Numbered from the stretch's first letter, positions 9,128 to 30,662 are shown. The stretch is DNA of 64,000 bases from a virus (IMGVR_UViG_2645728093_000001:16033-80032), one strand, 5' to 3'. Notes: generated from the letters alone by a model not told the origin. Translations and numbers: made by a program.

Positions 9128-9352
9128 ATGGCTGTTGATCATGATGCGCGCGCGCTGGAGCGGGAGCTTCAGCGCATCTTCGAAAGCCACGGTGTCCCGA
9201 CCACGGAGATCGAGGGCGTCCATCACGTCGGGCTGTGCTCGACACGCCAGGTCGGTGACAAGGGTGGGCGCTACGTCCCGAGCATGCCGTCGAAGTCGGC
9301 CGCTGTCGCTCTGCCGACGCTGGCCAAGGACATTCTGGAGGCGCTTCGTTGA
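9128..9352 (+). CDS. Hypothetical protein
   Basis: Fills the gap between dnaN and the methyltransferase; stop overlaps next start. Confidence 0.5.
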   Translation: MAVDHDARALERELQRIFESHGVPTTEIEGVHHVGLCSTRQVGDKGGRYVPSMPSKSAAVALPTLAKDILEALR

Positions 9353-16935: not shown

Positions 16936-17210
16936 CAACCTCTCAATCGCCGCTCCGCGTCCTCAAGGCCCAGGCCAACAACATGGCCAGGATAATGAAG
17001 GCCATCGAGCGCGGCGAGAAGGTGACCGAAGATGTCGGCGGCAAGCTTGCGGCGTCGCTGGCCGTCGGCGTCGCCAAAGTGGCGATCGCGATGGACGACA
17101 AGGTGATCATCCTCGACATCGCATGGTCAACGGTAAAGACCTCAAGCGAGGTCGCGCTCGCCGAGTATGTCCTCGGACTCATGCGCGGCTCGCGCGAGAC
17201 GAAGCACTAA
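16932..17210 (+). CDS. Hypothetical protein
   Basis: ATGA-coupled ORF MTTSQSPLRVL. Confidence 0.6.
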   Translation: MTTSQSPLRVLKAQANNMARIMKAIERGEKVTEDVGGKLAASLAVGVAKVAIAMDDKVIILDIAWSTVKTSSEVALAEYVLGLMRGSRETKH

Positions 17211-17212
17211 CG

Positions 17213-17557
17213 ATGGCTCGAAATCGCATCCCGACACTGGGCTCCCGTATCGCGACGCTGGATACCCGCAAGGCCAAGCCGCTGCCGAAGAAGGCCGACC
17301 CGCACTATCAGACCGCCGAGCACGAGGAGTGGGCAGAGTTTGTTAAGCGGCGCGCCGGCTATCGCTGCGAGCACGTCGACGACGGCAAGCGGTGCTGGCG
17401 CAGTGCCGAAAAGGGGTACCGGATGTACGCCGACCACATCAAGGACATCAAAGACCGGCCAGATCTCGCGCTCGATCGCGACAATGGCCGCTGCGCCTGC
17501 AGCTCGCACAACGTCCGTGCAGGCATCCAGGCGCGAGCAAACCGCATGAAATCGTAG
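17213..17557 (+). CDS. Small HNH endonuclease, HK97 gp74-like terminase accessory type
   Basis: YQTAEHEEW...RAGYRCE...ADHIKDIKDRPDLALDRDNGRCACSSHN. Confidence 0.8.
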   Translation: MARNRIPTLGSRIATLDTRKAKPLPKKADPHYQTAEHEEWAEFVKRRAGYRCEHVDDGKRCWRSAEKGYRMYADHIKDIKDRPDLALDRDNGRCACSSHNVRAGIQARANRMKS

Positions 17558-17563
17558 GGGAGG

Positions 17564-17806
17564 GTGAGCATGAAGCTGAACGCGCGCGAACTCGAGCTTC
17601 AGGCGCTAAGAGTGCGCAGGTACGAGGCGGCGCAGGCCCTCAAGCGCGAGCTCGACGCCAAGGATGCCGCGGCGGTCGCGCAGGACGCGGCAGCCAAGCC
17701 CCCGGCGTCGGCGGCGAAGCCGGCCAAAAAGGCGGCTGCGAAAAGTAGGCGCAGCCGGGCCTCGAGCAAAATCGGCCGTAGCCGGGGATCTCGCAAGAAG
17801 TCGTAG
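17564..17806 (+). CDS. Small basic hypothetical protein
   Basis: GGAGG SD; Ala/Lys-rich; 3' end overlaps motif B copies. Confidence 0.45.
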   Translation: MSMKLNARELELQALRVRRYEAAQALKRELDAKDAAAVAQDAAAKPPASAAKPAKKAAAKSRRSRASSKIGRSRGSRKKS

Positions 17807-17814
17807 CCGGGGGA

Positions 17815-18024
17815 CTAACGGAGTCGCAGTTCGCGCTCGATCGCCGGTTGACGGTTCATGAGTTCCTGGACGCAGGGAGGGACGGGATCCTTCCGGCCCA
17901 GCGCGGCGCCGGTCGCCACCGCATCTGAGGCGCGGCGCGCAAGCTGCAGCCAACCGAATAGTGCAGCGGTCGGCATTGCCCGGATTTGGTCGAGATTAGG
18001 TGGCGTTGTCGTTGCAGTGAGCAT
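17815..18024 (-). CDS. Hypothetical protein, last gene of antisense block
   Basis: 69-aa ORF co-oriented with the block, ends next to motif B. Confidence 0.4.
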   Translation of the reverse strand: MLTATTTPPNLDQIRAMPTAALFGWLQLARRASDAVATGAALGRKDPVPPCVQELMNRQPAIERELRLR

Positions 18025-18072
18025 GCGCCGCTGGTGGCAGCAGGACTAGTCCGACAATCAGAGCCAGGCGCC

Positions 18073-18414
18073 TCATGCCTCTTCCTCGTCGATGTCGGCC
18101 GGCATCTGCCGAAGCTTCTGATATGGGAAGGCTCCGAGCTCGGGATGTAGCCGGTCCTCCTCGATCATCGCCGCGGCAGCCATTCGCGCCGTTCCCTTCG
18201 CCTCCGGGAGCGTCATCAACGTCAGCGCGATCGGCACCCAGGTCGGAATGTCCTGAAGCTTCCCGTCCGCTCCGCTCCGGCCCCATCGGTTCACGGTGAC
18301 AAGATTCTGGCACCATATCCTGGCGAAGGCTTTCCGTGTCAGGCCCTGCCGCTCAAGCTCGCGATCGAAATCCTCGCAGGCGATCTTCTTGTGTCTGAAG
18401 CGTGGCGGGGCCAT
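18073..18414 (-). CDS. HTH-like DNA-binding protein
   Basis: LERQGLTRKAFARIWCQNLVTVNRWG...IPTWV; AAGGAGG SD and variant motif A upstream. Confidence 0.65.
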   Translation of the reverse strand: MAPPRFRHKKIACEDFDRELERQGLTRKAFARIWCQNLVTVNRWGRSGADGKLQDIPTWVPIALTLMTLPEAKGTARMAAAAMIEEDRLHPELGAFPYQKLRQMPADIDEEEA

Positions 18415-18536
18415 CACGGTCCTCCTTTTCGGTTGGGCACAGTCGCCCGAAATCGGCCGTAGCCGAGGGTATGGCGGATAGGTGGAGCGGAGTCGAGTCC
18501 GCGCCGGGCCGGCAAAATCGGCCGTAGCCGAGGGGG

Positions 18537-18902
18537 TCAAAGCCCCTTGAGCGGTGACACGAAGGACTTACCGTCCATCGCGATGGTCGAGATCTCGCCG
18601 GGCCCTTCGATCATGCGCAGCCATTCCCCCTCGGATCCGGTGAAGCCTGGCCCGGCCTCGACGTGGTGCGCGGCCAGCCACTTCGCGAGATCGCGCGCCG
18701 AGGCGCAGGGCGGGGAAAGCGGCGTGCCGGCGGTCGTCGTCTCGTAAAGCTGCCAGTGCGTGCAGGCCTCCGCCGGCCAGGCGGGCATCCGCTGATCGGT
18801 TGCCCGCGCCAGCGCGTCGTCCGCCTTGCGCAAGGGGATGTAACGCCGGCCGTTCTTGGGGTGCTGCCAGTCTGCCGGCACTCGCCTAACCTGCCTGCCC
18901 AT
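18537..18902 (-). CDS. Hypothetical phage protein
   Basis: MGRQVRRVPADWQHPK...WQLYETTTAGTPLSP. Confidence 0.7.
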   Translation of the reverse strand: MGRQVRRVPADWQHPKNGRRYIPLRKADDALARATDQRMPAWPAEACTHWQLYETTTAGTPLSPPCASARDLAKWLAAHHVEAGPGFTGSEGEWLRMIEGPGEISTIAMDGKSFVSPLKGL

Positions 18903-19180
18903 CAGAATAACGCCCCCTGGGCGGGTGGCGGCTCTGCAGCGGCAGCCAGGCGGCCGAGATGCTCGACCGTCTCGGCGATGATCCGCTCGCGGTCGTCGTC
19001 GACCAGCAGCCAACCATCATCACTGCCGGCGGGATCGTAAACCACGAAGTTGCCGCCCCATTTCGCATGCACGCCTTCGGCAACCCGGCGGACGAATGGC
19101 GGGACGTCTGTAACCGCTTTGAAGTCGGCCCAAGACGCGATTTTGTAGCCGGCCGTGGCGATGATCTCCTCGGCGGTCAT
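18902..19180 (-). CDS. Hypothetical protein
   Basis: Coupled to both neighbours; GGAGG SD. Confidence 0.65.
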   Translation of the reverse strand: MTAEEIIATAGYKIASWADFKAVTDVPPFVRRVAEGVHAKWGGNFVVYDPAGSDDGWLLVDDDRERIIAETVEHLGRLAAAAEPPPAQGALF

Positions 19181-19365
19181 GATCCGCCTCCCTCTGCGCG
19201 TTCGAGATTGGCCTGAAGGTCCCAGGCCTCATAGATAGCCCGTCGTGCCTCCGTGAGTTTCGCTCGCACCTCCGGCAACAGCCGCTTGTCTTCGGCATCG
19301 ACGACGCGCGCGACGGCGTCCAAAAGTCTATTGTAGACGTCCCAGTGGAATGGATGCTTCCGCAT
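19177..19365 (-). CDS. Hypothetical protein
   Basis: MRKHPFHW with GAGGAG SD. Confidence 0.6.
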   Translation of the reverse strand: MRKHPFHWDVYNRLLDAVARVVDAEDKRLLPEVRAKLTEARRAIYEAWDLQANLERAEGGGS

Positions 19366-19428
19366 GCGGGATACTCCTCTCAAAAATCAGTCGTAGGGAA
19401 GGGGTGACGAAGTAGGCGCAGCCGGGGC

Positions 19429-19806
19429 TCAAATAAACCTGCCGCAATCGATGCACCGGCCGCGTCCGTCGTCGCGGTGCCGGCACGGCTTGAACGCTTC
19501 CGCCTCTGTGTCCGACCAAGCCCGCTCGGTTTCCGTGGCGATGTCCCAGCGCCCGCAGAACGAGGCGAGGTAAGCGCGCTGCTCTTCCGTCAGTTTTTCG
19601 TCGTGCAAGTGCTCGTCGGCGCTCCCCAGGTTGAGGCCTTGCTCCTGATTCCAGCGTGCATATTCCCGGATGAGCAGATTAATCGGGCCGTCGTCATTGC
19701 CTGGCAATTGCTCCGGTGCCGGCTTGGCATTGGCGCCGCCGAGCGCTTCGATGATGCCGGCGCGCGCGCCTTCGATTGGTCCGGAAAGCTTCTTGTTGTC
19801 GGTCAT
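19429..19806 (-). CDS. Hypothetical protein with C-terminal CxH...CxxC
   Basis: AAGGAGG SD; CRHRDDGRGRCIDCG. Confidence 0.7.
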   Translation of the reverse strand: MTDNKKLSGPIEGARAGIIEALGGANAKPAPEQLPGNDDGPINLLIREYARWNQEQGLNLGSADEHLHDEKLTEEQRAYLASFCGRWDIATETERAWSDTEAEAFKPCRHRDDGRGRCIDCGRFI

Positions 19807-19865
19807 GGTCGGAATCCTCCTTTTGCAAAATTGGCCGTAGGCGAGGGGAAGGCGCAGCCGGGGGA

Positions 19866-21812
19866 TTATCCCGGCGGCCCCTCGATCACGAGCAAGGCGG
19901 TATTCACGGAGGTCCCAGCATGCTTAAACGATCCCGCCGGGAGGTCGCGCCACTCCGAGGCAATCGGCATCAGCTTGTCCCGCTGGCGCGGACCGTTGGC
20001 GCAGATCGCGACGAGCCGGCCGCCAGGTTTCAAAAATTTGCGGGCGTGCTCGATATGCTGGATGTCCGCGCCGCGCTCGAACGGCGGGTTCATGATGATG
20101 CGGTCGAACTTATCGACCGCGCCGGCCATGTCCATGAAATCAGCATTGATGATGGTCACGCCCTGCTGTGATCGGCCGAGAGTTTGCGCAACCTGGTGAT
20201 TGATCTCAATCGCCACGATGTCGAGCGACCCGGCGCCATGGACGCGCGCGGCCTCGATGAGCGCACCCGTTCCCGCGCTTGGCTCCAAGATGCGATGGCC
20301 AGGCCTGATGTCGGCCAACTCTGCAACCTCGGCCGCGAGTTCGGGCGAAGTCGGGAAGAGTTGCGGCGCAACCACGACTTGCACGCCGCCGCCTTTCAGC
20401 ATGGCCCGCATTGCCTCAAAATCAGCCGTAGGCGAGGCCGCCGGCAAATCGGCCGTAGCCGGGAGGGAGTCGAGCGCATCGACCAAGACGGGGCGCGGTG
20501 CAGGCGCAACCGGGGCCAGGGTAGCAGCTGGCTCGGCCGTTTCCTGCGGCTCGCCCATGATCTCCGAAACCAGCGAAAGCGCGGCATCGAGATCGGCGTC
20601 CGGCGTCGCGACGTTCTCGCGGACGAATTCCGCCGGGCTTTGCGGTTGGCCGTGATCCTTGCTGTCAGTCAGATAGACCGCGACCAAAGAATGCTTGACC
20701 ATAGCTGTGCGGAAGCGGTGCGACTTGTCCGCGCTCCACCGCGCGCCCTTATAGTCTTTGTTGATGCGCGCATATTCAGCCTTGGTCATATCGACTTGCG
20801 GATAGGTGGTGGTCCGGCCGCGGTCGTACATATTCGTTGTCGTGATTTCTCCGCCAGGGGCGCGATAATTCAACAACGGCGGGAGTTCGCGACGCGGTTT
20901 CGGTGCCAGCAAGCCGGACGCGCCGGCCTCATCCAACATTGCGCGTTCATAGGCCAAGCGGTTTTCAAAATGCTCAATCCAGCGATCTTGATGAGGAATC
21001 GCGCGCTCATAACCCGGGATGGCGATGGCGGCGGCTTGCGCGGCGGTTATGACGTTACCGTCAATCGCTGACCAAAGCCCCATGGGGCCTTCATACTGCG
21101 AAGCGGGCGGGTCGCGCGGATAGTCGGCGAGCGGGAATGACATTGACCAATAGCCGCCCGCATTTGCAACGGTTAGCCCGACCGCGCGCTGCTTCTCAGC
21201 ATCATTGATGCCGGCCACGATTTGCCATGCCTTGATTTGCTTTTCGGCATTAGCCTTGCTGCGCTCGACCTTGCGCTTTTCCGCCTCAATGGTCTTGATG
21301 CGACGCGCGCGCACTTCGGGGAGTTCTTTGTATTTCGCATGTGCCAGAGCGCCGGCGGCGCGCCCGGTCCAATATTGCGACGTCCGCCACATCTGCACGG
21401 CTTTGCGCATGCCGGCGTCAATCTTCTCCTTGTCGCGGCGTGCATGCTTCTCCGAATGGTGCCCGACGAGGATCGGCCGACCAAACGGGATATTGTCCGC
21501 GATCTCGGCAACGGCTTTGCGCGCGCGTTCCGCGTCGGCCATGCGCTTTTCGCTGTAGTCCTCAAAGCGCTCGGCGCGCTGCTCGGCGCGATCGACCAGG
21601 CTTGTATCCTCGTCACCGATCTCGCCGCAGAGCTCAATCAGCAAATCCTCGGCGGCCGGCGACCAGGACGGCTTGACGAAGAGTTCCTGTTTCGGTGCCC
21701 ATTTGAAGCCGAGCGCCTCGACGCGTGCATAGGTCTCGGCGTCCAAGCGCTGCGAGGCGTACAGGCGCAGCTTGTTGTCATCGGGCGAGTAAGTGGCGGA
21801 ATAGGTGGTCAT
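19866..21812 (-). CDS. DUF3560-domain protein fused to an amino-methyltransferase domain
   Basis: ATYSPDDNKLRLY...IPFGRPILVGHHSE (DUF3560-like); ILEPSAGTG SAM-binding and IMNPPF catalytic motifs. Confidence 0.85.
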   Translation of the reverse strand: MTTYSATYSPDDNKLRLYASQRLDAETYARVEALGFKWAPKQELFVKPSWSPAAEDLLIELCGEIGDEDTSLVDRAEQRAERFEDYSEKRMADAERARKAVAEIADNIPFGRPILVGHHSEKHARRDKEKIDAGMRKAVQMWRTSQYWTGRAAGALAHAKYKELPEVRARRIKTIEAEKRKVERSKANAEKQIKAWQIVAGINDAEKQRAVGLTVANAGGYWSMSFPLADYPRDPPASQYEGPMGLWSAIDGNVITAAQAAAIAIPGYERAIPHQDRWIEHFENRLAYERAMLDEAGASGLLAPKPRRELPPLLNYRAPGGEITTTNMYDRGRTTTYPQVDMTKAEYARINKDYKGARWSADKSHRFRTAMVKHSLVAVYLTDSKDHGQPQSPAEFVRENVATPDADLDAALSLVSEIMGEPQETAEPAATLAPVAPAPRPVLVDALDSLPATADLPAASPTADFEAMRAMLKGGGVQVVVAPQLFPTSPELAAEVAELADIRPGHRILEPSAGTGALIEAARVHGAGSLDIVAIEINHQVAQTLGRSQQGVTIINADFMDMAGAVDKFDRIIMNPPFERGADIQHIEHARKFLKPGGRLVAICANGPRQRDKLMPIASEWRDLPAGSFKHAGTSVNTALLVIEGPPG

Positions 21813-21916
21813 GCTCGAAAGCTCCTTTCAGATTGCGCACAATCGCGCGGGGATGCGGTTCATAGGGGGCCCGCTGAATCTCGTCAACGGGAAAATCAGT
21901 CGTAGCCGAGGGGAAA

Positions 21917-22099
21917 TCAATCGTAGCCGGGAGGGCGCAACTCCGGGTGCACTCGGTAGAGCATCGCATAGGCGGCATCGCGCGACCGGTGCGCGGAAGT
22001 ACCGAGCTTGGTGATACTGAGCCAGTCGCCGGCCCATCGCCCGGGGACTTCACTGGCGAGACAGACGCGCGGTTTGTTGGCCTTGCTTTTCTTTGCCAT
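21917..22099 (-). CDS. Hypothetical protein
   Basis: MAKKSKANKP ORF ending in motif B. Confidence 0.45.
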   Translation of the reverse strand: MAKKSKANKPRVCLASEVPGRWAGDWLSITKLGTSAHRSRDAAYAMLYRVHPELRPPGYD

Positions 22100-22218
22100 G
22101 TGATCAGGCCTGGATTTCGTGGCTTTCGATGATGCAGGCACCATCGAAGGATTCTTCCCAAAGGGCGGAGATAGCCTCAGCGCCCAACGTGTCGAGATTG
22201 TCGGGCATCGGCTTAGCC

Positions 22219-22932
22219 TTATAGCCAGTCCGCAGCCTCGCGCGCGGCGGCGAGCGCTTTGGCTTCCGTCGCAAAGGCCTCCGTGCCAATCCCCATGTTG
22301 TCGCCGTCGGTTGTCAGCGTCCAAACCGTCACGCCGGAAGGCGCAACCGAGGGGGCCGCGGCGCCAGGCGGGAGCAAAGCGGCATACGCCTTGATCGCGC
22401 TCGCGACGGCATCCGCGGCGCGCGCCAATGCCTCGTTTTGCGTGCCGTCGTCGGTCGTCATTTCCGCCCGCATGGCGTCGCGGTGCGTCTCGGCGATGGA
22501 TTCCCATGAAGGCGCAGCCGGGGGAGTGTGCGCCTTGAGACGATCCGCGAGCGCTTCCCAGCGCGGAATCCATGCGCCGTCTGCAGCCGCGCGCGCGTGG
22601 CGGAGGCTGGATTCTACCGCCATCAACAAATGCTGACGTTCCGGCTCGGTGAGCGGCGAAGCGGCATCGGGCGCCGGCATGGGCCGCAGTGCCTCGCCTT
22701 CAAGGCTGATAGAGTCCTCCGGCCATTCCGTGCCGTCATGAGCGACGAAAAGCGATTTCCCGCGCGCGTCCGTCGTTGTGTGCTGGCCGTCCCAGCACAC
22801 TTTGGTTTCGTCCATGTGGTTGAATTCGAGCGACCCGTCAGGATTTCGGCCTGTGATCTCGCACCAGGCGTTGCCGGGGATGAGATCGGCGGTTGCAACG
22901 ATCTCGCTGCCGGTCGGTGAAAATGCTTTCAT
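22219..22932 (-). CDS. Hypothetical protein (possibly frameshifted, continuing to 22104)
   Basis: Motif A and GAAAGGA SD before MKAFSPTG. Confidence 0.7.
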   Translation of the reverse strand: MKAFSPTGSEIVATADLIPGNAWCEITGRNPDGSLEFNHMDETKVCWDGQHTTTDARGKSLFVAHDGTEWPEDSISLEGEALRPMPAPDAASPLTEPERQHLLMAVESSLRHARAAADGAWIPRWEALADRLKAHTPPAAPSWESIAETHRDAMRAEMTTDDGTQNEALARAADAVASAIKAYAALLPPGAAAPSVAPSGVTVWTLTTDGDNMGIGTEAFATEAKALAAAREAADWL

Positions 22933-23034
22933 GATGTTTCGTCCTTTCGCTTTGCGCACTATCGCGCGTCGGGAAATCAGCTGCAGCCGGGGCTGCGGGT
23001 CATCAACGGGAAATCGGCCGTAGCCGAGGGGCGG

Positions 23035-23313
23035 CTAGAGATTCACCTCGTGAAAGCCGGACGCGCCAGGAAGCTTTTTGAAACCAGGCGGGGAGCGATC
23101 GCGGCGGCCGATCCGCATTGACACAACGGCCGGCTTTCCGGTTGCCGCGACGTCGGCGCGGTAAGTCTCGAATTCGCGCGCGGCGTCCGCGGCGCGCTGT
23201 ATTTCGACGGTGCGGCCGGGGAACGGCAGCGCGTCGCCGGACAAGCAAAGATGAACCGAAACGAAAGCGCCGTTACGCTCGGCCGGATAGCTGCTCAGGA
23301 TCAATTTAGCCAT
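23035..23313 (-). CDS. Hypothetical protein
   Basis: Motif A and GAAAGGAG SD before MAKLILSSY. Confidence 0.75.
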   Translation of the reverse strand: MAKLILSSYPAERNGAFVSVHLCLSGDALPFPGRTVEIQRAADAAREFETYRADVAATGKPAVVSMRIGRRDRSPPGFKKLPGASGFHEVNL

Positions 23314-23397
23314 TGGGTTAGCTCCTTTCATGGTGCGCACGATTGCGCGTGAAATCGGCCGTAGCCGAGGGGTTGAGGAAATCAGACGTAGCCGGGA

Positions 23398-23811
23398 CTA
23401 GGCCGCCGCGGCGCGCTCCGCCGGCAACTCTTTGGTTTGCGCGACGTCGAAAACCGGGACCATGACGAAACGGACGGTTGGCGCCTCGGCCGCCTCCGCC
23501 GCGCCGGCTTCATTGCTCGGCGCCGAGGCCTCGGCCTTCCGCGCGCCAGTCGGCGCAAAGATGTAAAGCGCGCTTTGACCTTCCTGGACAACGCGACCGG
23601 CCGCAATCCATTGCTGGAAGCCGCCGACCATGGTTGCGGTCTGGCATTGCAGCGCGGCCAAAAGTTGATTGTTGCCGGACAACGCGCTGCCGTCGATTGT
23701 CAGGATCGGGACGCGCGCCAGCCATTGCGCCTTTTGTTCATCCGTCATGTTGGCAATCTGTTGCGCCAACTGGCGCGCCTTTTCTTTGTTCGGGTTCTCT
23801 TTCTTCCGCAT
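23398..23811 (-). CDS. ArdC-like N-terminal ssDNA-binding (antirestriction-associated) domain protein
   Basis: LSGNNQLL..LQ...ATMVGGFQQWIAAGRVVQEGQSALYIFAP...FVMVPVFDVAQT. Confidence 0.75.
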   Translation of the reverse strand: MRKKENPNKEKARQLAQQIANMTDEQKAQWLARVPILTIDGSALSGNNQLLAALQCQTATMVGGFQQWIAAGRVVQEGQSALYIFAPTGARKAEASAPSNEAGAAEAAEAPTVRFVMVPVFDVAQTKELPAERAAAA

Positions 23812-23866
23812 GTCGTTTGCTCCTTTCGATTTGCGCACAATCGCGCGATGGAAACGGCCGCGCCGA

Positions 23867-24064
23867 TTACTTCCAGGCCTTTGCGATGCGAAGTCCGCCG
23901 CCGTCGATAACGTCGCGGGGTTCAAGGCTGGCCAATCCCTCGGCCTCGAATTCGCGCGCCGCGGTTTCAAACCTATGGCCAGGGTAAAGCAAGACTCCGC
24001 CCGGCGCGGCTTGCTTCAATGCGCCAAACAACGCGTTACGTTCTTTAATCGAGGCCTTCCGCAT
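23867..24064 (-). CDS. Hypothetical protein
   Basis: GGAAGGA SD directly after a motif B pair. Confidence 0.6.
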   Translation of the reverse strand: MRKASIKERNALFGALKQAAPGGVLLYPGHRFETAAREFEAEGLASLEPRDVIDGGGLRIAKAWK

Positions 24065-24126
24065 TTCTTATCCTTCCGAAATTGGCCGTAGCCGAGGGGG
24101 ACGCAAAATCAGCCGTAGCCGAGGGG

Positions 24127-25188
24127 TTAGGCCGAGGCGCCAAATCGAGGCGCAACCGGGAGGCGCGCGATCGGCGCGCCGAGCGATGTTGACGCGAGAA
24201 AGCGCGCGGCCAGGCGAGGCGCCGCGGAACGCGCGGCCGGCGCGACGTCCGCCGCGGCCGGTTGCTCGGCCCGCGCCTCGGCCGCCGTTACCAGCCGGAG
24301 GCGCGGCGCCTCGGCCTCGGCCGCCGCAATCCGCGCGCGGCGCCTTTCGAGATAGGCCGCGACCCGCGCGGCCTTTGCCTCGGCCTTTGCGGCCGCCTCG
24401 GCTTGCCGGCGCGCCTCGGCCTCGGCTTTATCGATGGCACGGCGCCGCGCGCCAATCTCAAAATTGCACATGCCGGAAAGCCGGAGGCGGCAATCCTCAA
24501 CCGTTGCCGCCAGCTCGGCCGCGGGGGTTTCATCTGCGCCGGATTGCTCGGCCTCGGCCATCGCGATTCGGTAATGAACCCGCCAGAATTCGGCGCGCGT
24601 TACGGCACCGTCCGGCGCCTTCTCAGGTATTGCCTCGGCCTCGGCCGCAAGCGCGGTTGCGTCGAATGTGCCGCGGCGCGCCTCGGCCGTCCGTTCGCTG
24701 CAATCGGTAGCGTCGAATTCGGCGCCGTTGTCGCACGCGATGGAAGCGATTGCAGGGATTGTGACGATATCGGAATCAGCGGAAAAGGCGCCGGCCGTCC
24801 GAGCAATGCGCGCGCGGTAATAAGCGAAAGCAATCCGGAGGCCTCGGCCAATGTTTAGCGGCTTGCCAGGCAATGAAACGGCCGGCGCGCGGACAACGGC
24901 GCCGCATGCGAACGTGACAGTAAGCACGGGCGATTTACCAAGCCGCCGGCCGTTCGCGGATTGCGGAATGGCATAATCGGCCCATGGTGCGAAACGGCTT
25001 TCCGGCGCCTCGGCCGAGGCTTTGGGCGCGGCTTTGGTGGCAGGGATAGCCAATCGCAGCAAATCCGCAACGGCGCGCCAGTTAGCCGCGCCAGGATCCT
25101 GACAAGCATTGTCATAGGCGAGAATGGCCAGGCCTTTACGTTCGGAGGCTTTCGCCGCGCGCGCGGCCGTCAAATCAATCTGATGCAT
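24127..25188 (-). CDS. Ala/Arg-rich hypothetical protein with coiled-coil C-terminal part
   Basis: Motif A and GAAAGGA SD before MHQIDLTAA. Confidence 0.7.
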   Translation of the reverse strand: MHQIDLTAARAAKASERKGLAILAYDNACQDPGAANWRAVADLLRLAIPATKAAPKASAEAPESRFAPWADYAIPQSANGRRLGKSPVLTVTFACGAVVRAPAVSLPGKPLNIGRGLRIAFAYYRARIARTAGAFSADSDIVTIPAIASIACDNGAEFDATDCSERTAEARRGTFDATALAAEAEAIPEKAPDGAVTRAEFWRVHYRIAMAEAEQSGADETPAAELAATVEDCRLRLSGMCNFEIGARRRAIDKAEAEARRQAEAAAKAEAKAARVAAYLERRRARIAAAEAEAPRLRLVTAAEARAEQPAAADVAPAARSAAPRLAARFLASTSLGAPIARLPVAPRFGASA

Positions 25189-25255
25189 GGGAAACGTTCC
25201 TTTCGAGTTGCGCACAATCGCGCCGGTTGGATTGCTCGGCCGAGGCCGAGGCGGA

Positions 25256-25555
25256 TTAGCTCTGTAGTTTGGCCAGGCGCCGCGCGTCGATTGCGGCGCG
25301 AATCTCTTTCTTGAACCGGCCGGCATATTGGCCATGAAACGTGCGGGACGTTGCTACCGCGCGATCTAGCGCAAGCTTTGCGGTCCGGTAGCGCGGCGCG
25401 AATTTGATAGCATCGGGGGTCAATCCCATTGCACCGCGCGCGGGAATTCCGAGCTCGGCCGCCAATGTGTCCCGGATTGCGTCATGGCATGCCGTTGCGT
25501 CGCGCAAGGCTTGCTCTAGTGTGGCCGAGGCGGCTTGATACTCTGCAAACGTCAT
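25256..25555 (-). CDS. Hypothetical protein
   Basis: GAGGGG SD; RGAMGLTPDAIKF. Confidence 0.7.
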   Translation of the reverse strand: MTFAEYQAASATLEQALRDATACHDAIRDTLAAELGIPARGAMGLTPDAIKFAPRYRTAKLALDRAVATSRTFHGQYAGRFKKEIRAAIDARRLAKLQS

Positions 25556-25569
25556 TGCCTGGTTTCCCC

Positions 25570-25908
25570 TCAATAGCCGGCCGCCTCGGCCGCATAATCC
25601 CGCTGGCCAGTTTCGCCCGGTTGCCAATCGGGAAACCGCGCGCCGTTTTCCGTATCGTCATAACCGGCCGCCAATCGGTCCGCGGGACAATGGCAGCTGC
25701 CATGCTGGGTTAGCCGGCCGTCACAATCGGCGCCGTCTTTGCACCAATCGTTGACAACGGTCCGCCCGTCGAATGAAAACGCATTGCTTTCGCGGTGCCA
25801 TCCTTCGTCCGTGCGGCCGCCGTGCGAATGGTGCAAGGTCTGGCCGGACCGAATCTTGATCTTGACCAATCCAGACTTGTGATAATGCCAGAAGCGCGCG
25901 GTTTGCAT
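25570..25908 (-). CDS. Hypothetical protein
   Basis: GAAAGGA SD; TDEGW...DCDGR...QRDYAAEAAGY. Confidence 0.75.
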   Translation of the reverse strand: MQTARFWHYHKSGLVKIKIRSGQTLHHSHGGRTDEGWHRESNAFSFDGRTVVNDWCKDGADCDGRLTQHGSCHCPADRLAAGYDDTENGARFPDWQPGETGQRDYAAEAAGY

Positions 25909-25922
25909 GCGGCGGTATCCTT

Positions 25923-26264
25923 TCAAGGTAATGCGTTGAAATTGGTCCGATAGGTCGCGGCTTCCAAGACGCAACGTCGCGCGGCTTCCAGATTGATAAC
26001 GCGCCCCATGGGATAGCGTTGCGCGGTCCGCCTATATTCCGCCGCCCATGCCAAAGCGTCCACCGCCAACGCGCGCCTAGGCCGCTCAGAAAGGCGAGAT
26101 GTACGGAGGTAGTAGCGCGGCATGCGGCCGGGCGGACGTTCTGCCGTAATGATAAAGCGGACTCCGCCCGCAACGAAGTCGCGGCCGATTCCGTACTGTT
26201 GAACGGCCGCGCGGGTTTCCGCTCGCAAGCCTTGCATCAGTTTCCGATAAGCCGCGCGATTCAT
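25923..26264 (-). CDS. Hypothetical protein
   Basis: ATGA-coupled to upstream ORF. Confidence 0.6.
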   Translation of the reverse strand: MNRAAYRKLMQGLRAETRAAVQQYGIGRDFVAGGVRFIITAERPPGRMPRYYLRTSRLSERPRRALAVDALAWAAEYRRTAQRYPMGRVINLEAARRCVLEAATYRTNFNALP

Positions 26265-26659
26265 GCCGCTTGCTCCATTTCGCAAACCGGAGTCCAACCC
26301 GTGGCCACGTCATAAGAGGCCGCGCGCGCGATCATGGGCGGCCGGCGCAATTCATCGTCCGCCGCAATTATGCCGTAGCGTTCCGGCGCCGCGTCAAGTT
26401 TGGCCATTTGCGCCATGTGCTCGGCCGCGCGCCAGGCATTGAAGGCCGCGACGATATCAGCCGGCAATGGATCAATGCTGCGCACAAGCATTCCGATTCC
26501 CGTCCGCATGGCGCGGCGGACGTCGTCACCGTTCGCAATCGACAGCTCATAATCCGAGACGCTGTGACGGATTGAGGCCTCAAAGGTTTCGGTCGCGGTT
26601 GTGACGCGATAGTAAACCGTTCCCATGAATGAGCATTGCCATTTGAAACGTGGAGTCAT
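26261..26659 (-). CDS. Hypothetical protein
   Basis: Motif A and GAAAGG SD. Confidence 0.7.
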   Translation of the reverse strand: MTPRFKWQCSFMGTVYYRVTTATETFEASIRHSVSDYELSIANGDDVRRAMRTGIGMLVRSIDPLPADIVAAFNAWRAAEHMAQMAKLDAAPERYGIIAADDELRRPPMIARAASYDVATGWTPVCEMEQAA

Positions 26660-26696
26660 GGTCTAGCCTTTCGAGTTGCGCACAATCGCGCGGGTT

Positions 26697-26939
26697 CTAT
26701 TCGGAAAAATACGGTTTGCGGTCCCCAGCCTTGCGCGCCTCGGCCTTCGTTCTATTGTCAAGCCTTCCTTCGCACGCGCAAAGATGCATTAGGCAAGCGC
26801 CGAGTTCCGACGCGGCGTCACCGTAGTTAAGCCCGCGCTTTATTTGCTTTCCATACTGGACCGTGAATTGGTCGAATCCGGTTTGGATCAATCGAACGGG
26901 GAAGCCGGAGGAAAGCTCTTCAAAGCAAACATTTCGCAT
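26697..26939 (-). CDS. Hypothetical protein
   Basis: GGAGG SD; FTVQYGKQ...LNYGDAASELGAC. Confidence 0.7.
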   Translation of the reverse strand: MRNVCFEELSSGFPVRLIQTGFDQFTVQYGKQIKRGLNYGDAASELGACLMHLCACEGRLDNRTKAEARKAGDRKPYFSE

Positions 26940-26942
26940 GCT

Positions 26943-27140
26943 TTAGCCTCCCGTTGCTTCGTCAAAGCGCGCGGCTTCAAAATCGCGGCTAGCTTGCTCG
27001 GCCTCGGCGCCGGTCAACATGGCGCGGGAGGTAGGATAGTAGAAAACGCGCGTTCCCTTTGGGATGAAAACCCCTTTCCTATCACTGCCGGGATATTTGG
27101 TAATGATCCATCGCGGATCGCCGCCGACATGCTTTCGCAT
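26943..27140 (-). CDS. Hypothetical protein
   Basis: Motif A and GAAAGGA SD; GDPRWIITKY. Confidence 0.7.
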   Translation of the reverse strand: MRKHVGGDPRWIITKYPGSDRKGVFIPKGTRVFYYPTSRAMLTGAEAEQASRDFEAARFDEATGG

Positions 27141-27231
27141 TAGGTTTCCTTTCGAGTTGCGCACAATCGCGCGTTTGGTCCGCCGTGGCGTTCCGTTGTA
27201 CGGCGCAACGCGGCGCCCCACCGTCGGAACG

Positions 27232-27336
27232 TCAAAGGCAAGAATTCAGAAATGCACGCTTGCCGCTACGTGCGACCAATCGGCGAGTCCGCTTATCGTT
27301 CGGCTTGCGGTCAGTCTCATGACGGGCATAACGCAT
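27232..27336 (-). CDS. 34-aa basic peptide
   Basis: Motif A and GAAAGGA SD before MRYARHET. Confidence 0.6.
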   Translation of the reverse strand: MRYARHETDRKPNDKRTRRLVARSGKRAFLNSCL

Positions 27337-27429
27337 AGTCGTTTCCTTTCGTGGTTGCGCACAATTGCGCGGTTTCGGCGGTTTGCCGGCTAAGCCGAGG
27401 CGCTGCGGCCTCGGCTTAAACTGCAAACC

Positions 27430-27666
27430 TTAGCTGATACGCTCGCAAGCGCCGTTTTTGGGATTCCAGCTAATCAACATATCGCCAACCCGGACCGAAT
27501 AGCCGCGCGACATACGAACGGCGCGCGGTGCGGTCCGGCCGGTTTGCTGCAGCCAACGGCCGCAATCCCAAGCAATGCCCGATGCACTCGAATGATAGAA
27601 AGGATTCCGCGCCTCGGCCGGCGCCTCGAAACCCTGTTTTACCTCGGCCGTCAAATCGGTTGCCAT
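27430..27666 (-). CDS. Hypothetical protein
   Basis: GAGG SD; NPFYHSS...AWDCG...VRMSRGY. Confidence 0.65.
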   Translation of the reverse strand: MATDLTAEVKQGFEAPAEARNPFYHSSASGIAWDCGRWLQQTGRTAPRAVRMSRGYSVRVGDMLISWNPKNGACERIS

Positions 27667-27676
27667 GGTCGCGGCC

Positions 27677-27862
27677 TCAAATCGCGATTGCAACGGCAAG
27701 GCGCGCGGTGCGGATAGCGTCAATGCGGCGCGCCGGAATGGTGCGATCCGCCGCGGCGATCCGTTCGGCCAGGCTGATAAGACGGTGCGCGAGGCCGAGG
27801 CGGCCGAGCTCGATTGCGTTTGCAGCGTCTAGCAAAAGGCCTTTAACGGTATTGTTTCGCAT
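27677..27862 (-). CDS. Hypothetical protein
   Basis: Motif A and GAAGGA SD before MRNNTVK. Confidence 0.65.
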   Translation of the reverse strand: MRNNTVKGLLLDAANAIELGRLGLAHRLISLAERIAAADRTIPARRIDAIRTARLAVAIAI

Positions 27863-27906
27863 GGTCGTTTTCCTTCTGAGTTGCGCACAATCGCGCGGGT
27901 TGAAAC

Positions 27907-28065
27907 TTAGTAGCGGTTGCGGCGCCGATAGCTCGGCCGGCGCCTCCGGACCGGCGCGCCATATTCGACGGCCGCAAGCGCGAGCCAACCGACAACGGCC
28001 AGGCCGAAAAGAAACGTTGCCGGCAACATCGGGTTGGCGATGCAAAAGGCGATAAAGGCTTGCAC
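27907..28065 (-). CDS. Small membrane protein
   Basis: TAAGGGG SD, GTG start, one hydrophobic segment and a basic tail. Confidence 0.5.
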   Translation of the reverse strand: MQAFIAFCIANPMLPATFLFGLAVVGWLALAAVEYGAPVRRRRPSYRRRNRY

Positions 28066-28075
28066 GGTGCGCCCC

Positions 28076-28300
28076 TTAAGCAATCGGCCGCGATTGATCG
28101 GCAGAGACTTCGCACAAAACAACGCGATAGAAGGCGCGGGAATTGCGCGGGCGATCTCCGCCGCGAACGGCGGAGAAGGCAAGGCGCCGATACATTGCCT
28201 CGAAAGCATCAGCCGACGATTTGAGGAAAAGGCGCGCGGTCCAATCGCAACCGGTCAAGGTGCAGCGAAAGCGGATGTCAAAGGCTTGGCGGCGGGACAT
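28076..28300 (-). CDS. Hypothetical protein, first motif-A-led gene of the block
   Basis: Motif A and GAAAAGG SD. Confidence 0.6.
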   Translation of the reverse strand: MSRRQAFDIRFRCTLTGCDWTARLFLKSSADAFEAMYRRLAFSAVRGGDRPRNSRAFYRVVLCEVSADQSRPIA

Positions 28301-28339
28301 GTTCGGGCCTTTTCGGTTGCGCACAATCGCGCGTTTCGT

Positions 28340-28380
28340 GTCCCGCACATGCCTATATCAGCGGCCGGCCGTCAAGAGGG
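28340..28380 (-). promoter_or_regulatory. Putative sigma70-type promoter driving the antisense block
   Basis: CTTGACG at 28376-28370 with AT-richer DNA upstream; -10 element is weak or ambiguous. Confidence 0.4.
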
Positions 28381-28484
28381 AAAATGCAATTCAGTGAAAA
28401 GAATTTGCGAAAAGCCGGCAACGGCGCCGTTTATGTCACTATCTAGTGACGGCCGAGGCCTCTAGTAGTTCGGCCGCGGCTGGA

Positions 28485-28796
28485 TCATTCGCGCATTGCC
28501 TTATGCACTCGGCCGAGGCGCCGGACGTCCGCCCATGCATCCGCCGCGCCGATACCGGCAAGCACGGCGCGACATTTAAGGCCTAGCTCGGCCGTCCCGC
28601 CGTTCTGCCGTGCAGCTGTGACGGTATTCGGCGAGATGAATAGAACGGCCGCGGCCTCCCCATTGGAAAGGTCTAACTCGGCTTGCCATGCCTGGAATTC
28701 GGCCGCCGTGATTCGCAGTGCGGTGGCGGCCGAGGCATAGGCGCGGGACCGCGCCAGGGTTTTGCCGGTTGCGTGCTTTCGAGGCTTAGACGTCAT
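28485..28796 (-). CDS. HTH DNA-binding protein
   Basis: ITAAEFQAWQAELDLSNGEAAAVLFISPNTV; GGAG SD. Confidence 0.7.
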   Translation of the reverse strand: MTSKPRKHATGKTLARSRAYASAATALRITAAEFQAWQAELDLSNGEAAAVLFISPNTVTAARQNGGTAELGLKCRAVLAGIGAADAWADVRRLGRVHKAMRE

Positions 28797-29025
28797 TGCT
28801 TTTCACTCCGCCGTGACTCTTCCCAGGTATCTCAGCCGGCAACTATCACAAATCAGGGAATGGCCGAGGCCTCGGCTTGCAATCGTCCCCGGGTTTTGCG
28901 CGGAACCCGATTTGACAACCGACTCCGCAACTGATTCAGAATAGGCACGGTGATGGATTGTCACTGAAGCAAGCCCGCCAGGCACAAGCCGCGGCGGGCT
29001 TTGTGTTTGGCGGAGGCGCCAGCCC

Positions 29026-29292
29026 ATGGCAGAGCACGACAAGCCCGCCATTCTAACCCGCTATTGGCAGCCAACAGGCCGAACGCGTATGCGCACCGGA
29101 TGGTTTGGCTTGCTCGTTATCGAGGTGCTGCAGGAACGCGTTGCCATGGTGGGAAAGCGTTGCGAACATCAGGCACGCTGGCGCCGTGCATCGCGTGGCC
29201 AGGTCGTAACGTTCGGGCAGGGTAGCACGGTGCGCCCCCATGTCCTCGATACCGTCAACCCGCACCGTTACGACTTCGTCCGCCGTGGGTGA
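29026..29292 (+). CDS. Hypothetical protein
   Basis: GGAGG SD; TGRTRMRTGWFGLLVIEV...RWRRA. Confidence 0.5.
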   Translation: MAEHDKPAILTRYWQPTGRTRMRTGWFGLLVIEVLQERVAMVGKRCEHQARWRRASRGQVVTFGQGSTVRPHVLDTVNPHRYDFVRRG

Positions 29293-29684
29293 TATCGTCG
29301 GCTTTAGGCCGGCAGCTGGCCGGCCACATGATCGGCCGGCCTTAGAGCGCGGCGCCGTCGGTAGCGTTGTGGCACTGCCCGTTATCAGGATTGAGCGGGA
29401 CGCAACGGCCGACGCATGGGACGGCTTGCCAAGTGACAGCGCCCCGCACCATGCGGCGCTATGGCCAGAGCAGAGCTAGGCGCCGAGGCCTCGGCGCTTG
29501 CCTGCCACGTCAACCCGTCACTACCAGACAACGCTAGCCGTAGAGGCGAGGGATTGCCGCGCGGCGCGGCGCGCCGGCTTGCCAGGTACCACCATAGCCG
29601 CCTCGGCCAGGCCTTAGCATCGCATCAATCGGGCGAAACGAGGCAAAACAGCCCCAAACCCGGCCGTTTCGCCAGCAAAAGCCG

Positions 29685-29800
29685 CCCACCACCCCGGGGG
29701 GGGTGAATTCCCGGGCAAACCGCGGGGGGCCGACCGCCAGGGGTCTCATTTGGAGATTTTTTTGGGGCGGCCGAAATTTTGGGCTCTGGCGTCATTTTTG
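29685..29800. other. Candidate cos / packaging initiation region
   Basis: CCCCGGGGGGGGTG...GGGGGGCCGACCGCC...GAGATTTTTTT upstream of terS resembles cos regions of HK97-like phages; oligonucleotide usage switches here. Confidence 0.5.
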
Positions 29801-29826
29801 ACGATTTCGAGAAAAACGGGAAATCC

Positions 29827-30135
29827 ATGCGCAGCACCGGTCAGACGAAAGCGATGGTCGAAAAGCTGCCTGAGACCGGCTCGGTCGTCGTGGTGCATAC
29901 CGACCCGCTGCGATCGCATGTCCGCGACATGATCCTGACCCTGCGCGGATCCGAGGTGCTTGGACGCACTCGGATCGAGGTGATCAAGAACCGCGAGGCT
30001 GCGGATCGGTTGGTCGGCCTGCGCGTGCCCGTGTTCGTTGACCACGCCTTCGCCGACCATGTCAGCCGTGAGACCGCATCTGCGGTTCGGGCTTTGGCCG
30101 ACGGGACGAACTCGATGTTCCGGAAGGCCGGCTAA
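29827..30135 (+). CDS. Hypothetical protein
   Basis: ORF directly upstream of terS with late-gene codon style. Confidence 0.6.
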   Translation: MRSTGQTKAMVEKLPETGSVVVVHTDPLRSHVRDMILTLRGSEVLGRTRIEVIKNREAADRLVGLRVPVFVDHAFADHVSRETASAVRALADGTNSMFRKAG

Positions 30136-30146
30136 GGAATTCCAGG

Positions 30147-30659
30147 ATGGTTGAGCGTAAGGCCCGCGGCAAAGCTGCGAAGGCGAAGTCGCGCGGCAAG
30201 GCGGCCAAAAAGGGAAAGCGCAAAAGCGCCGGCCGGCCCGAGATCAAGGTCACCGCGTCTGATCGGGAAAAGGTCGAGATCCTGATCGGCGGCGGAATGG
30301 CGGTCGAGGAAATTGCGGCCGCAATGGATATGGCCGTGAACTCGCTGAAGAAGCACTTCGGCGCCGAGCTCAAGCGGGGGCGCTCAAGGAAGCAGGCCGC
30401 GATGCTCGAGGCGATGTTCAAGGCCGGCGTCGGCGGCAACGTTTCGGCGCAGAAGGCCTACATGCAGCACAGCCTGCTGGCGGCCGCCGACGACAAAGTC
30501 CAGGGAGCGGCCGAGCCGGCTCCGGCACCGCGCGCGCCGCGAGCCTACCAGGGCAAGAAGGACGCCGCCCAGGAAGAAGCCATGACGGCCGGCGCCGGAA
30601 CGGAGTGGGGCAGCGACCTCGATCCGTTGGCGCCGCAGCCCGGCGTGAAGCCGAACTAG
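30147..30659 (+). CDS. Terminase small subunit
   Basis: GRP...HTH (EEIAAAMDMAVNSLKKHF), GNVSAQK; directly before terL. Confidence 0.8.
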   Translation: MVERKARGKAAKAKSRGKAAKKGKRKSAGRPEIKVTASDREKVEILIGGGMAVEEIAAAMDMAVNSLKKHFGAELKRGRSRKQAAMLEAMFKAGVGGNVSAQKAYMQHSLLAAADDKVQGAAEPAPAPRAPRAYQGKKDAAQEEAMTAGAGTEWGSDLDPLAPQPGVKPN

Positions 30660-30662
30660 CCC

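Follow-up and report, generated by a model that had tools for sequence, protein, structure and literature searches.

We analysed a 64,000-nucleotide stretch of viral DNA, hereafter the window, that covers bases 16033-80032 of the 80-kb IMG/VR record IMGVR_UViG_2645728093_000001 and represents a prophage of a Bradyrhizobium lineage. Genes for the small and large terminase subunits (TerS and TerL), the portal, the tape measure, and a GpJ-like tail protein identify the surroundings as those of a tailed phage. The subject of this study is an array of about 22 co-oriented genes that occupies ~11 kb of the minus strand (17815-28796), between a gene for an HNH endonuclease (17213-17557, plus strand, 114 amino acids) and a conserved cos-like element (29690-29790, plus strand) that precedes terS (30147-30659, plus strand), the start of the late operon. 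Based on codon scoring, on starts anchored to a repeated motif, and on conservation, the array holds 22-23 genes encoding 34-648 amino acids, from HTH103 (28485-28796, minus strand, 103 amino acids) to HTH114 (18073-18417, minus strand), plus a doubtful 69-amino-acid open reading frame (ORF; 17815-18024, minus strand).

An earlier note on this DNA had drawn the antisense block from 17560 to 29800 with ~25 ORFs. While the minus-strand array is real, its right limit lies ~1 kb further left, at 28796, since the minus-strand ORFs between 28803 and 29750 look non-coding and two plus-strand genes with homologues are found there instead. The same note described the ORFs as mostly 34-140 amino acids long with strong Shine-Dalgarno (SD) sequences; SD sequences of the GAAAGGA type do stand behind the motif of repeat family A, but the gene sizes span the wider range given above. 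Helix-turn-helix (HTH) genes near both ends were likewise only partly borne out, as HTH103 shows a weak Xre-like HTH in Pfam and the HTH of HTH114 was assigned by sequence reading, with no Pfam match. The array also differs from the rest of the phage in composition. The GC content at third codon positions (GC3) is 0.711 in the array versus 0.799 in the early and 0.816 in the late genes, and six-base palindromes reach 40.2 per kb versus 23.7-26.0 elsewhere in the phage (observed/expected 1.11 versus ~1.0), partly because each family A motif holds TGCGCA and CGCG runs. No tRNA genes are present.

Two repeat families, already proposed as the organising elements of the block, are both confined to the array and occur far above expectation. 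Family A comprises eleven 17-mers on the minus strand between 18433 and 28333 (starts at 18433, 21833, 22952, 23333, 23831, 25208, 26676, 27157, 27355, 27881, and 28317). With TTGCGCACAATCGCGCG as the plus-strand query and up to three mismatches, we obtained 14 matches in the window against 1.36 expected: the eleven co-oriented copies, one reversed three-mismatch match inside the block, and two three-mismatch matches outside it. Each of the eleven copies lies 18-22 nt before an ATG or GTG start and 3-6 nt upstream of a GAAAGGA-type SD sequence. Family B comprises 14 copies on the minus strand (17769-24126; cccCyCGGCTACGgcCGATTT), with all 14 window matches co-oriented against 0.23 expected. 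Across the whole 80-kb record, every copy with at most one mismatch falls within the block, both for A (9/9) and for B (11/11). In the whole genomes of two Bradyrhizobium strains, the A motif is again nearly confined to one cluster (7/7 and 5/6 copies).

Read as RNA, family A would form the hairpin GCGCG-AUUG-UGCGC followed by AA. We aligned 62 copies (58 distinct) from six proviruses, namely the window and five relatives (G1-G5, i.e., G001-G005), and found the five pairs kept in 290 of 290 cells of the distinct copies. A CG-to-GC double change occurs in four rows, all of them orthologous copies before HTH114, where the variant motif of the window reads CGGGCG..GCCC; in 16 rows the inner G-U wobble is replaced by A-U, and one G-C pair has changed to G-U. 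The double change is probably a single inherited event. The variation is small and this change likely happened once; the inverted repeat is well supported and may act as RNA. The flanks of the motif are asymmetric, the loop bases A and G are invariant, and the unpaired AA is conserved on one side only. We favour the reading that A acts as an RNA element bound by a factor, since AA conservation is one-sided, the ends of the loop are invariant, and the spacing to the SD sequence is fixed.

As regards the mechanism of A alone, it is possible, though we would not expect it, that the motif is a DNA site, an asymmetric operator of the stoperator type that would block transcription through the array and be bound by HTH103, HTH114, or the prophage repressor. 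The stoperators of Cluster A mycobacteriophages reportedly stand as co-oriented copies in short intergenic spaces, which is how the eleven A copies are arranged; two HTH genes lie within the array, and the arms of the inverted repeat are compatible with a dimeric DNA binder. The term stoperator also occurs in the available portion of PMC3203893. The same features that favour an RNA element speak against an operator, namely the fixed spacing to the SD sequence and ATG, the invariant loop, and the one-sided AA, as do the consensus G-U wobble at the inner pair with its A-U replacement and the sigma-70-like promoter that lies upstream of the first A copy. That promoter also led us to reject family A itself as a promoter. 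An N4-like hairpin promoter for a virion RNA polymerase was rejected as well, as no polymerase was found among the large structural proteins. Separately, an exact A 17-mer with SD sequence and ATG occurs as a single copy at 655-700 of an unrelated, AT-richer viral contig (L027), which could be due to chance or to a wider use of the motif.

The promoter upstream of the first A copy, termed P1 (28347-28375, minus strand), consists of TTGACG, 17 nt, and GCATGT and lies ~40 nt from that copy. P2 (21859-21887, minus strand; TTGACG, 17 nt, TATGAA) lies between B copies and the A motif of a DUF3560-methyltransferase gene. Both are sigma-70-like by pattern only. TTGAC(G/A), 17 nt, and GCATGT precede the first A copy in all six aligned proviruses (in G5, TATGGT after 16 nt), and as patterns P1 and P2 would place A inside a 5' leader. 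Promoter-like hexamers are found at 2 of the 11 A-bearing junctions in the window. A consensus sigma-70 scan returned 0 promoters, the 16 terminator-like sites equalled the number expected by chance (15.9), Rfam gave nothing at gathering score over 17000-30300, and no operator-like words were common to the immunity region and the region upstream of the block.

The B copies are often paired, 25-29 nt apart, and follow stop codons (21 of 67 neighbour distances are 25-29 nt), with GGCTACG...GATTT as the best-kept core. We rejected B as a mini-terminator, as only 18 of 75 copies have all five pairs of the stem (273/375 cells paired); B may be a stop, a processing site, or a binding site. Long GC-rich hairpins recur at the same intergenic positions in the promoter-proximal half of the array. 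Two of them, at 27337-27429 and 27141-27231, lie just upstream of A motifs, and in the relatives the hairpin before the m34 gene keeps its position and shape with an altered inner stem. Four sequencing runs were compared as contigs. Contigs from two soil metagenomes bridge 28306-31500 and 28822-31500, as expected of integrated or concatemeric DNA, and joints near A and B repeats, which have 90% likeness and short sides and possibly stem from relatives or repeats, give a weak hint of cassette exchange at the repeats.

Among the array genes, that at 19866-21812 (minus strand) encodes a 648-amino-acid fusion of DUF3560 (E 2e-35) with an N6-adenine-type (NPPF) methyltransferase, confirming the fusion that had been proposed from the sequence. 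The methyltransferase half has its NPPF motif from residue 575 and matches the Pfam families MTS and Methyltransf, PHROG DNA methyltransferase families, and the PADLOC models for Type II and orphan methyltransferases. No nuclease families were found in the block. With an S-adenosylmethionine (SAM)-binding fold, the NPPF motif, and no nearby nuclease, the predicted protein has the features of an orphan DNA N6-adenine methyltransferase. It is a single ORF of 648-787 amino acids in all six proviruses, and two B-like repeats at 20419-20466 encode the linker in frame (LPATADLPAASPTADF), as they likewise do in six of six. The arrangement suggests that two genes were fused long ago across an intergenic repeat.

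For the DUF3560 part, a plasmid search yielded at least 5000 matching records, at least 4075 of which are typed conjugative. On the IncFIA plasmid NZ_CP063484.1, DUF3560 and a separate SAM-methyltransferase are encoded next to traM, among genes for a DNA methylase, antirestriction, ssb, a ParB-like protein, psiB, hok, and DUF932. DUF3560 and the SAM-methyltransferase are a standard gene pair of F-type leading regions, where the two halves of the phage protein are separate adjacent genes. On pAOVO01, DUF3560 is fused to a methyltransferase, with ssb, DUF932, C5 methylase, and RadC genes as neighbours. The phage protein shares 41-47% identity over ~400-440 amino acids with two plasmid genes, and 52.7% over its first 300 amino acids in the plasmid search. 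Only 2 of 26 block-gene queries, the two halves of this protein, match the two plasmid regions compared. A Klebsiella CRISPR spacer study, in the section available, reports a DUF3560 gene on ~1000 plasmids (PMC6965323), and an excerpt of PMC11541004 describes orphan methyltransferases as a hallmark of leading regions.

A second link to plasmids is a 137-amino-acid protein (23398-23811, minus strand) that matches the N domain of ArdC over residues 11-114 (PF08401, E 1e-5, 26.2 bits versus a cut-off of 22.6) and the PHROG family phrog_7245, "anti-restriction protein" (E 1.4e-4). It also matches 36 plasmid records, many of them annotated as ArdC-like single-stranded DNA (ssDNA)-binding proteins; identity to the ArdC-like relatives on plasmids is ~30%. 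The C-terminal metalloprotease domain of ArdC is absent. Since the protein stops after the N domain it is not a full ArdC, and the ArdC-like domain of the earlier note stands for this half only. In the relative G5, a DUF932 gene (E 4e-34) lies behind an A motif, and a near-identical ORF lies behind A in G9. With the DUF3560 and SAM-methyltransferase pair and DUF932 in two relatives, the analogy with plasmid leading regions is stronger than had been claimed. Scans of the block genes against Pfam, PHROGs, and NCBIfam detected no ssb, psiB, ardA, klcA, or hok, and relaxase families had no match among the 23 block ORFs scanned.

We next turn to the relatives of the array. An exact scan of IMG/VR for the A 17-mer gave 22 loci on 12 contigs, nine of which were examined. 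An array with 5-11 co-oriented A copies (at most two mismatches) lies between HNH and TerL homologues in G001-G005, G007, and G009, and the position beside cos is kept in 8 of 9 array-bearing records including the window. The contig G008 (L167, L168), linear, 104.6 kb long, and rated complete, is a larger relative with a different layout: four A copies are at one end and terS is at the opposite end, TerL has 59% identity, and an HNH-like gene follows TerL instead of preceding cos. G006 carries one A copy, probably by chance, and no TerL or HNH match. The hosts are Bradyrhizobium and relatives; genomes of Bradyrhizobium embrapense and Bradyrhizobium sp. C9 strains are among those with the array.

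The blocks of the relatives share 65-80% DNA identity and are largely collinear; one cassette has changed place, and several others have been gained or lost. One or more related proviruses gave a tblastn homologue for 19 of 23 array genes. Six genes are present in all five aligned relatives (HTH103, m34, the DUF3560 part, two genes without annotation, and HTH114) and five more in four of the five. Between aligned relatives, the block proteins are 55-86% identical, compared to 32-37% for TerS and 42-57% for TerL. The ORF content that the earlier note proposed to compare between related prophages does vary in its cassettes, but a conserved core dominates. Given the synteny and the nucleotide identity across the lineage, comparative evidence identifies the array as an old, vertically kept module and not a recent insertion.

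Clustered arrays (at least four co-oriented copies) were seen in 3 of 201 sampled Bradyrhizobium genomes and the others hold 0-3 scattered matches; one genome of this sample, G027, has one background match and is used for no claim. A scan of genome contigs for the A 17-mer gave mostly single chance matches, and among the matches listed (at least 120 stretches) two loci, both from Bradyrhizobium, have clustered A and B. In isolated phages, megablast and blastn searches of a phage collection gave no DNA match to the block. Neither of the closest isolated phages by TerL, Labrenzia phage vB_LagS-V1 (60% identity) and Agrobacterium phage Rivra (56%), carries the block, and in both the HNH gene is immediately followed by terS.

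The meaning of the array's position depends on where the phage DNA ends. The cos-like element at 29690-29790 consists of G runs followed by TCTCATTTGGAGATTTTTTTGGGGCGGCCGAAATTTT and always lies on the terS side of the block (window and G2-G5). Between HNH and terS of vB_LagS-V1 and Rivra, we found G runs and then TCAyyTrGAGATTTTTTT, the same element as in the window. Its 18-mer TCATTTGGAGATTTTTTT has 47 loci in IMG/VR, ~31 of them with extended context and 16 of them unrelated AT-rich matches. The element of ~75 nt common to the ~31 contigs, which belong to GC-rich phages (loci L171-L217), reads GGGGGGGTGGGTCGAAAGTCTGG, ~30 nt, CCCTC, and TCATTTGGAGATTTTTTT; it is probably a widespread cos site, and literature searches found no description of it. 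The whole contigs L189 and L214 begin 1 nt before the 18-mer. In G008, the terS/TerL end begins with G and then TCATGCGGAGGTTTTTT, while the other end stops in the G-run half of the element. This array end of G008 has an HTH103 homologue that starts ~490 nt in, followed by inward-reading A motifs.

The well-studied phage HK97 offers a comparison. Its linear record has terS as the first and HNH as the last gene, with GATTTTTTT at +22 to +30. According to part of PMC11331095, the HK97 small terminase binds +15 to +29 beside an A-tract, and GATTTTTTT thus lies within or beside this mapped site. HK97, vB_LagS-V1, and Rivra also agree with the earlier statement that HNH lies close to cos and terS in HK97-like phages. 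Given the conserved element on the terS side and the ends of three independent metagenome contigs (G008, L189, and L214), cos is likely to lie near 29745, with a predicted cut near 29744/29745, which upholds the earlier assumption of a cos near 29.7 kb with good though not full confidence. From the HNH end (17557) to this predicted cos, the distance is ~12.2 kb, made up of the ~11-kb array and ~1 kb more, compared to ~0.3 kb in HK97.

Taken together, we read the locus as a conserved accessory operon array of an HK97-type cos siphophage lineage, placed at the chromosome end opposite terS, just inside cos, with a role in establishment; for this reading as a whole, our confidence is evenly divided. 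That the array would work as a first-injected anti-defence region is plausible and better motivated than before. The phage DNA would be cut at the conserved element near 29745 and packaging would begin toward terS, so that, by analogy with HK97 and lambda, the array would be packaged last. By the last-in-first-out rule, the array end would then enter first and the array would be among the first DNA in the cell. Host RNA polymerase could start at P1, behind the HTH103 gene, and at P2, before the methyltransferase gene, giving a long leftward transcript divided by the intergenic hairpins and family B elements. The A hairpin on eleven cistrons may serve as a common handle for one trans-acting factor that affects translation, mRNA stability, or read-through. 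The products would be establishment functions as in plasmid leading regions: the DUF3560-linked orphan adenine methyltransferase would modify incoming or replicating DNA, the ArdC-N protein would bind ssDNA, and ~18 small proteins would make up the others. HTH103 at the start and HTH114 at the end might provide control of the Aca or repressor type.

Several observations weigh against this reading. The available text of PMC10287942 calls last-in-first-out generally accepted and also reports that, for lambda in vitro, either end goes first at ~50%. The evidence from contig ends comes from three assemblies, and an assembly can also break at runs of G or T. Within 1 kb of the predicted end lie two outward-pointing plus-strand genes and the regulator gene instead of array genes, so that the array does not begin at the genome end as had been claimed. 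Only 2 of ~22 array genes in the window, those for the methyltransferase and ArdC-N, hint at anti-restriction, the latter without its protease domain, and the unannotated genes had no match in PHROGs (18 proteins), Pfam (17), NCBIfam (8), and PADLOC (8). The palindrome enrichment of the block is contrary to restriction avoidance. The codon usage of the array is less host-like, and its GC3 below the rest of the phage gives no sign of tuning for fast translation. A core that is more conserved than the terminase argues against a fast-turnover arms-race locus. Finally, the compensation in A would also fit a DNA inverted repeat.

These points leave room for two other functions, each of which we consider unlikely. 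The array could be a set of morons expressed during lysogeny, antisense to the lytic operons and serving the lysogen through superinfection exclusion or host fitness. Its orientation opposes both flanking lytic operons, it has promoter patterns of its own and many intergenic stop-like elements, its GC3 and codon usage are unlike the rest of the phage, and its cassette content differs between relatives. Against morons stands the core of at least six genes in 5/5 relatives, conserved above the terminase; furthermore, what the array shares with plasmids are leading-region genes, which act on entry, and no PADLOC defence model matched except those for methyltransferases. To a similarly small degree we credit an ordinary leftward, PL-like delayed-early operon for replication, recombination, or host takeover, whose place beside cos would have no functional meaning. 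With few leftward genes in the immunity region, functions of this sort must be encoded elsewhere; HTH regulators stand at both array ends, and an ssDNA-binding ArdC-N domain could serve recombination. However, the genes scanned had no match to a recombinase, exonuclease, or Gam-like family, and the cos-adjacent place is kept in 8/9 array-bearing records despite terminases at 42-59% identity.

A bolder extension of the establishment reading, to which we give still less credence, is that tailed phages and conjugative plasmids converged on, or exchanged, a "leading region", with an establishment or anti-defence operon fixed at the first-entering end and run by a private RNA code. The A hairpin, with its boxB-like stem of 5 bp, would be bound by a small array-encoded factor and would drive read-through of B stops or joint translation of the cassettes. 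The 34-residue m34 peptide is one candidate for this factor; its KRTRR stretch resembles the arginine-rich motifs found in lambdoid N proteins.

An independent mobile element, or a recently captured plasmid leading region inserted in the phage, is very improbable: plasmid-type genes (DUF3560-methyltransferase, ArdC-N, and DUF932), block-less relatives, and the deviating codon usage would agree with it, but none of the genes scanned matched an integrase, relaxase, or transposase, no flanking repeat, direct or inverted, longer than 12 nt of GC-rich sequence was found, all but two block-gene queries fail to match the plasmid regions compared, and synteny and DNA identity are conserved across the lineage. 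The possibility raised in the earlier note, that the block is bounded by its own att sites or inverted repeats, thus found no support in any of the integrase, repeat, and synteny comparisons.

The array is a variant of phage early regions, plasmid leading regions, and start-associated sequences, not a new category. For T7, T5, and, more recently, conjugative plasmids, it is well established that the DNA entering first has to carry counter-defence genes; to our knowledge this has not been described as a fixed architecture of temperate cos siphophages. In T7 (early, class I) and T5 (pre-early), end-proximal genes transcribed by the host polymerase act first, with anti-restriction among their functions. 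The array shares with these regions a proposed end-proximal gene set for the host polymerase, intergenic RNA structures, and proposed anti-restriction; unlike them, it belongs to a temperate HK97-type cos siphophage and has no sequence relation to Ocr, T5 A1, A2, or dmp. We know of no stepwise entry in HK97-type cos siphophages.

With the leading-region islands of plasmids, as presented in sections of PMC11541004, the locus has in common a co-oriented array of small genes in DNA predicted to enter first, an orphan methyltransferase, and real homologues in DUF3560 with SAM-methyltransferase, ArdC-N, and, in relatives, DUF932. It differs in that phage DNA enters double-stranded via the tail, without oriT or relaxase, and that ssb, psiB, ardA, and hok homologues were not found in the window. 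Nor were long hairpin promoters of the Frpo/ssi type found in the array, which has a short start-associated hairpin instead; Rfam had no relevant match over 17000-30300, with no Frpo model used.

The behaviour of family A resembles that of the start-associated sequences (SAS) and extended SAS (ESAS) of Cluster K phages, at least as far as the available part of PMC3203893 describes them: a repeated motif just upstream of starts, in one orientation, at non-structural genes only, conserved across related phages before unrelated genes, and absent from the host genome in general. SAS is a 13-bp asymmetric motif of the GGGATAGGAGCCC type that includes the SD sequence and lies 3-7 bp from the start, and ESAS consists of 17-bp inverted repeats for which the authors, in the same part, see little support for RNA pairing (PMC3203893). 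By contrast, family A is an unrelated 17-nt sequence upstream of a separate SD sequence, 18-22 nt before the start and with perfect pairing in 58 distinct copies, so that the likeness is one of behaviour only.

The promoter early stem-loop (PeSL) cassettes in hyperplastic regions of T4-type phages likewise place small ORFs without known function between repeated regulatory motifs and vary in cassette content (PMC2839356, in extract); the weak metagenome hints that variants join at repeats would add to this likeness. Each PeSL unit, however, is described in that extract as having a strong sigma-70 early promoter and a terminator stem-loop (PMC2839356), whereas most units of the array are promoter-less, with hexamers at 2/11 junctions, the family B stem-loop is weak, and a conserved core dominates. 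The packaging module itself is of the HK97 type, with the HNH gene, a TerL of PF03354/PF20441, a PF04860 portal, and a T-tract a few bases inside the left end just before terS. It departs from that type in that HNH does not adjoin cos and terS and in having an extra 102-amino-acid ORF between cos and terS.

Literature searches found no paper describing this array, in which a whole phage lineage keeps 11 kb beside a probable cos together with a gene pair that is found on thousands of F-type plasmids. If the array acts early and protectively, it would offer a tractable phage system for the role of the common plasmid DUF3560 and methyltransferase genes, and ~18 small conserved proteins would be candidates for new anti-defence or host-takeover factors. 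The A hairpin offers a clean case in which a phage-private cis-regulatory signal can be tested; signals of this kind have had no explanation since SAS were reported in Cluster K. In addition, as the array lies next to a probable DNA end, the idea of a plasmid-like leading region in a phage can be put to a direct test.

About 18 array genes are without annotation. Comparison of these proteins with PHROGs, Pfam, NCBIfam, and PADLOC gave only two PHROG families of unknown function and matches below cut-off, in addition to the methyltransferase models for the fusion. The candidate regulator HTH103 is present in 5/5 relatives at 40-61% identity. It is followed on the minus strand by a 74-amino-acid gene behind an A motif (28076-28300; homologues in G2 and G3), a 61-amino-acid gene behind an A motif (27677-27862), a 78-amino-acid gene (27430-27666; homologues in 3/5 relatives), and m34 (27232-27336), also behind an A motif and present in 5/5 relatives. 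The m34 peptide is arginine-rich, with 12 basic residues and a KRTRR core, and its orthologues differ mostly at third codon positions; we regard it as a candidate for nucleic-acid binding. A 65-amino-acid gene behind an A motif (26943-27140) has 81-86% identity in 4/5 relatives.

The most conserved of the unannotated proteins is m132 (26261-26659, minus strand), with 80-83% identity in three relatives and sixteen homologues, the named ones from Bradyrhizobium. Its AlphaFold2 (AF2) model has a pLDDT of 94, with no Foldseek match in the PDB at E <= 0.001 and a best VIA-align Z of 3.9. Three further genes without annotation, of 99, 110 (Cys/His-rich), and 124 amino acids, share 25256-26297. Behind the next A motif lies m353 (24127-25188, minus strand, 353 amino acids), with homologues from Bradyrhizobium and Rhodopseudomonas; its AF2 model (pLDDT 79) had no Foldseek match in the PDB, and the ESM Atlas gave no usable match for m132 or m353. 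Further along the same strand are a 92-amino-acid gene (23035-23313) and a 237-amino-acid gene essentially specific to this phage (22219-22932), both behind A motifs, as well as four genes without annotation of 125, 62, 92, and 121 amino acids (18537-19806), of which the 92- and 121-amino-acid genes occur in 5/5 relatives. HTH114, the last conserved gene, stands behind the variant A motif and has 67-78% identity in 5/5 relatives.

On the left, the array is flanked by plus-strand early and replication genes (~4.9-17.8 kb) for a sliding clamp, a C5 methylase, a primase, and DnaB (13519-14943, plus strand). The HNH match to Pfam is weak (E 0.0054, enclosing frame), and the protein has 64-84% identity to homologues in seven related proviruses. 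It is followed by a 78-amino-acid ORF (17570-17806, plus strand) whose 3' end overlaps the last family B copies and which has a homologue in G2 only among the five aligned relatives. On the right, the divergent region from HTH103 to the first plus-strand gene (28797-29025) is non-coding and shows nucleotide conservation with G2-G4; an 82-amino-acid ORF in it was rejected as a gene, as it does not look protein-like. The two small plus-strand genes between the array and cos (29026-29292, 88 amino acids; 29240-29479, 79 amino acids) have homologues in G5 and G1. The 102-amino-acid ORF between the predicted cos and terS (29827-30135, plus strand; in segment 29827-32375) has no homologue in the five aligned relatives. 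TerL (30663-32375, plus strand; PF03354 E 6e-14, PF20441 E 1e-13) and the portal gene (32435-34057, plus strand; PF04860 E 2e-88) follow terS, with a siphovirus tail module beyond.

Elsewhere in the phage, the rightward early operon encodes a second orphan methyltransferase, of the C5 cytosine type (644 amino acids, 9349-11283), beside the sliding clamp (7995-9122). Two further ORFs in the gene list lie at 35501-36526 and 36675-38057. In the structural region, an 882-amino-acid protein (43900-46548) combines GDSL lipase/acylhydrolase and arabinofuranosidase-like domains, and may be a virion protein that modifies surface polysaccharides.

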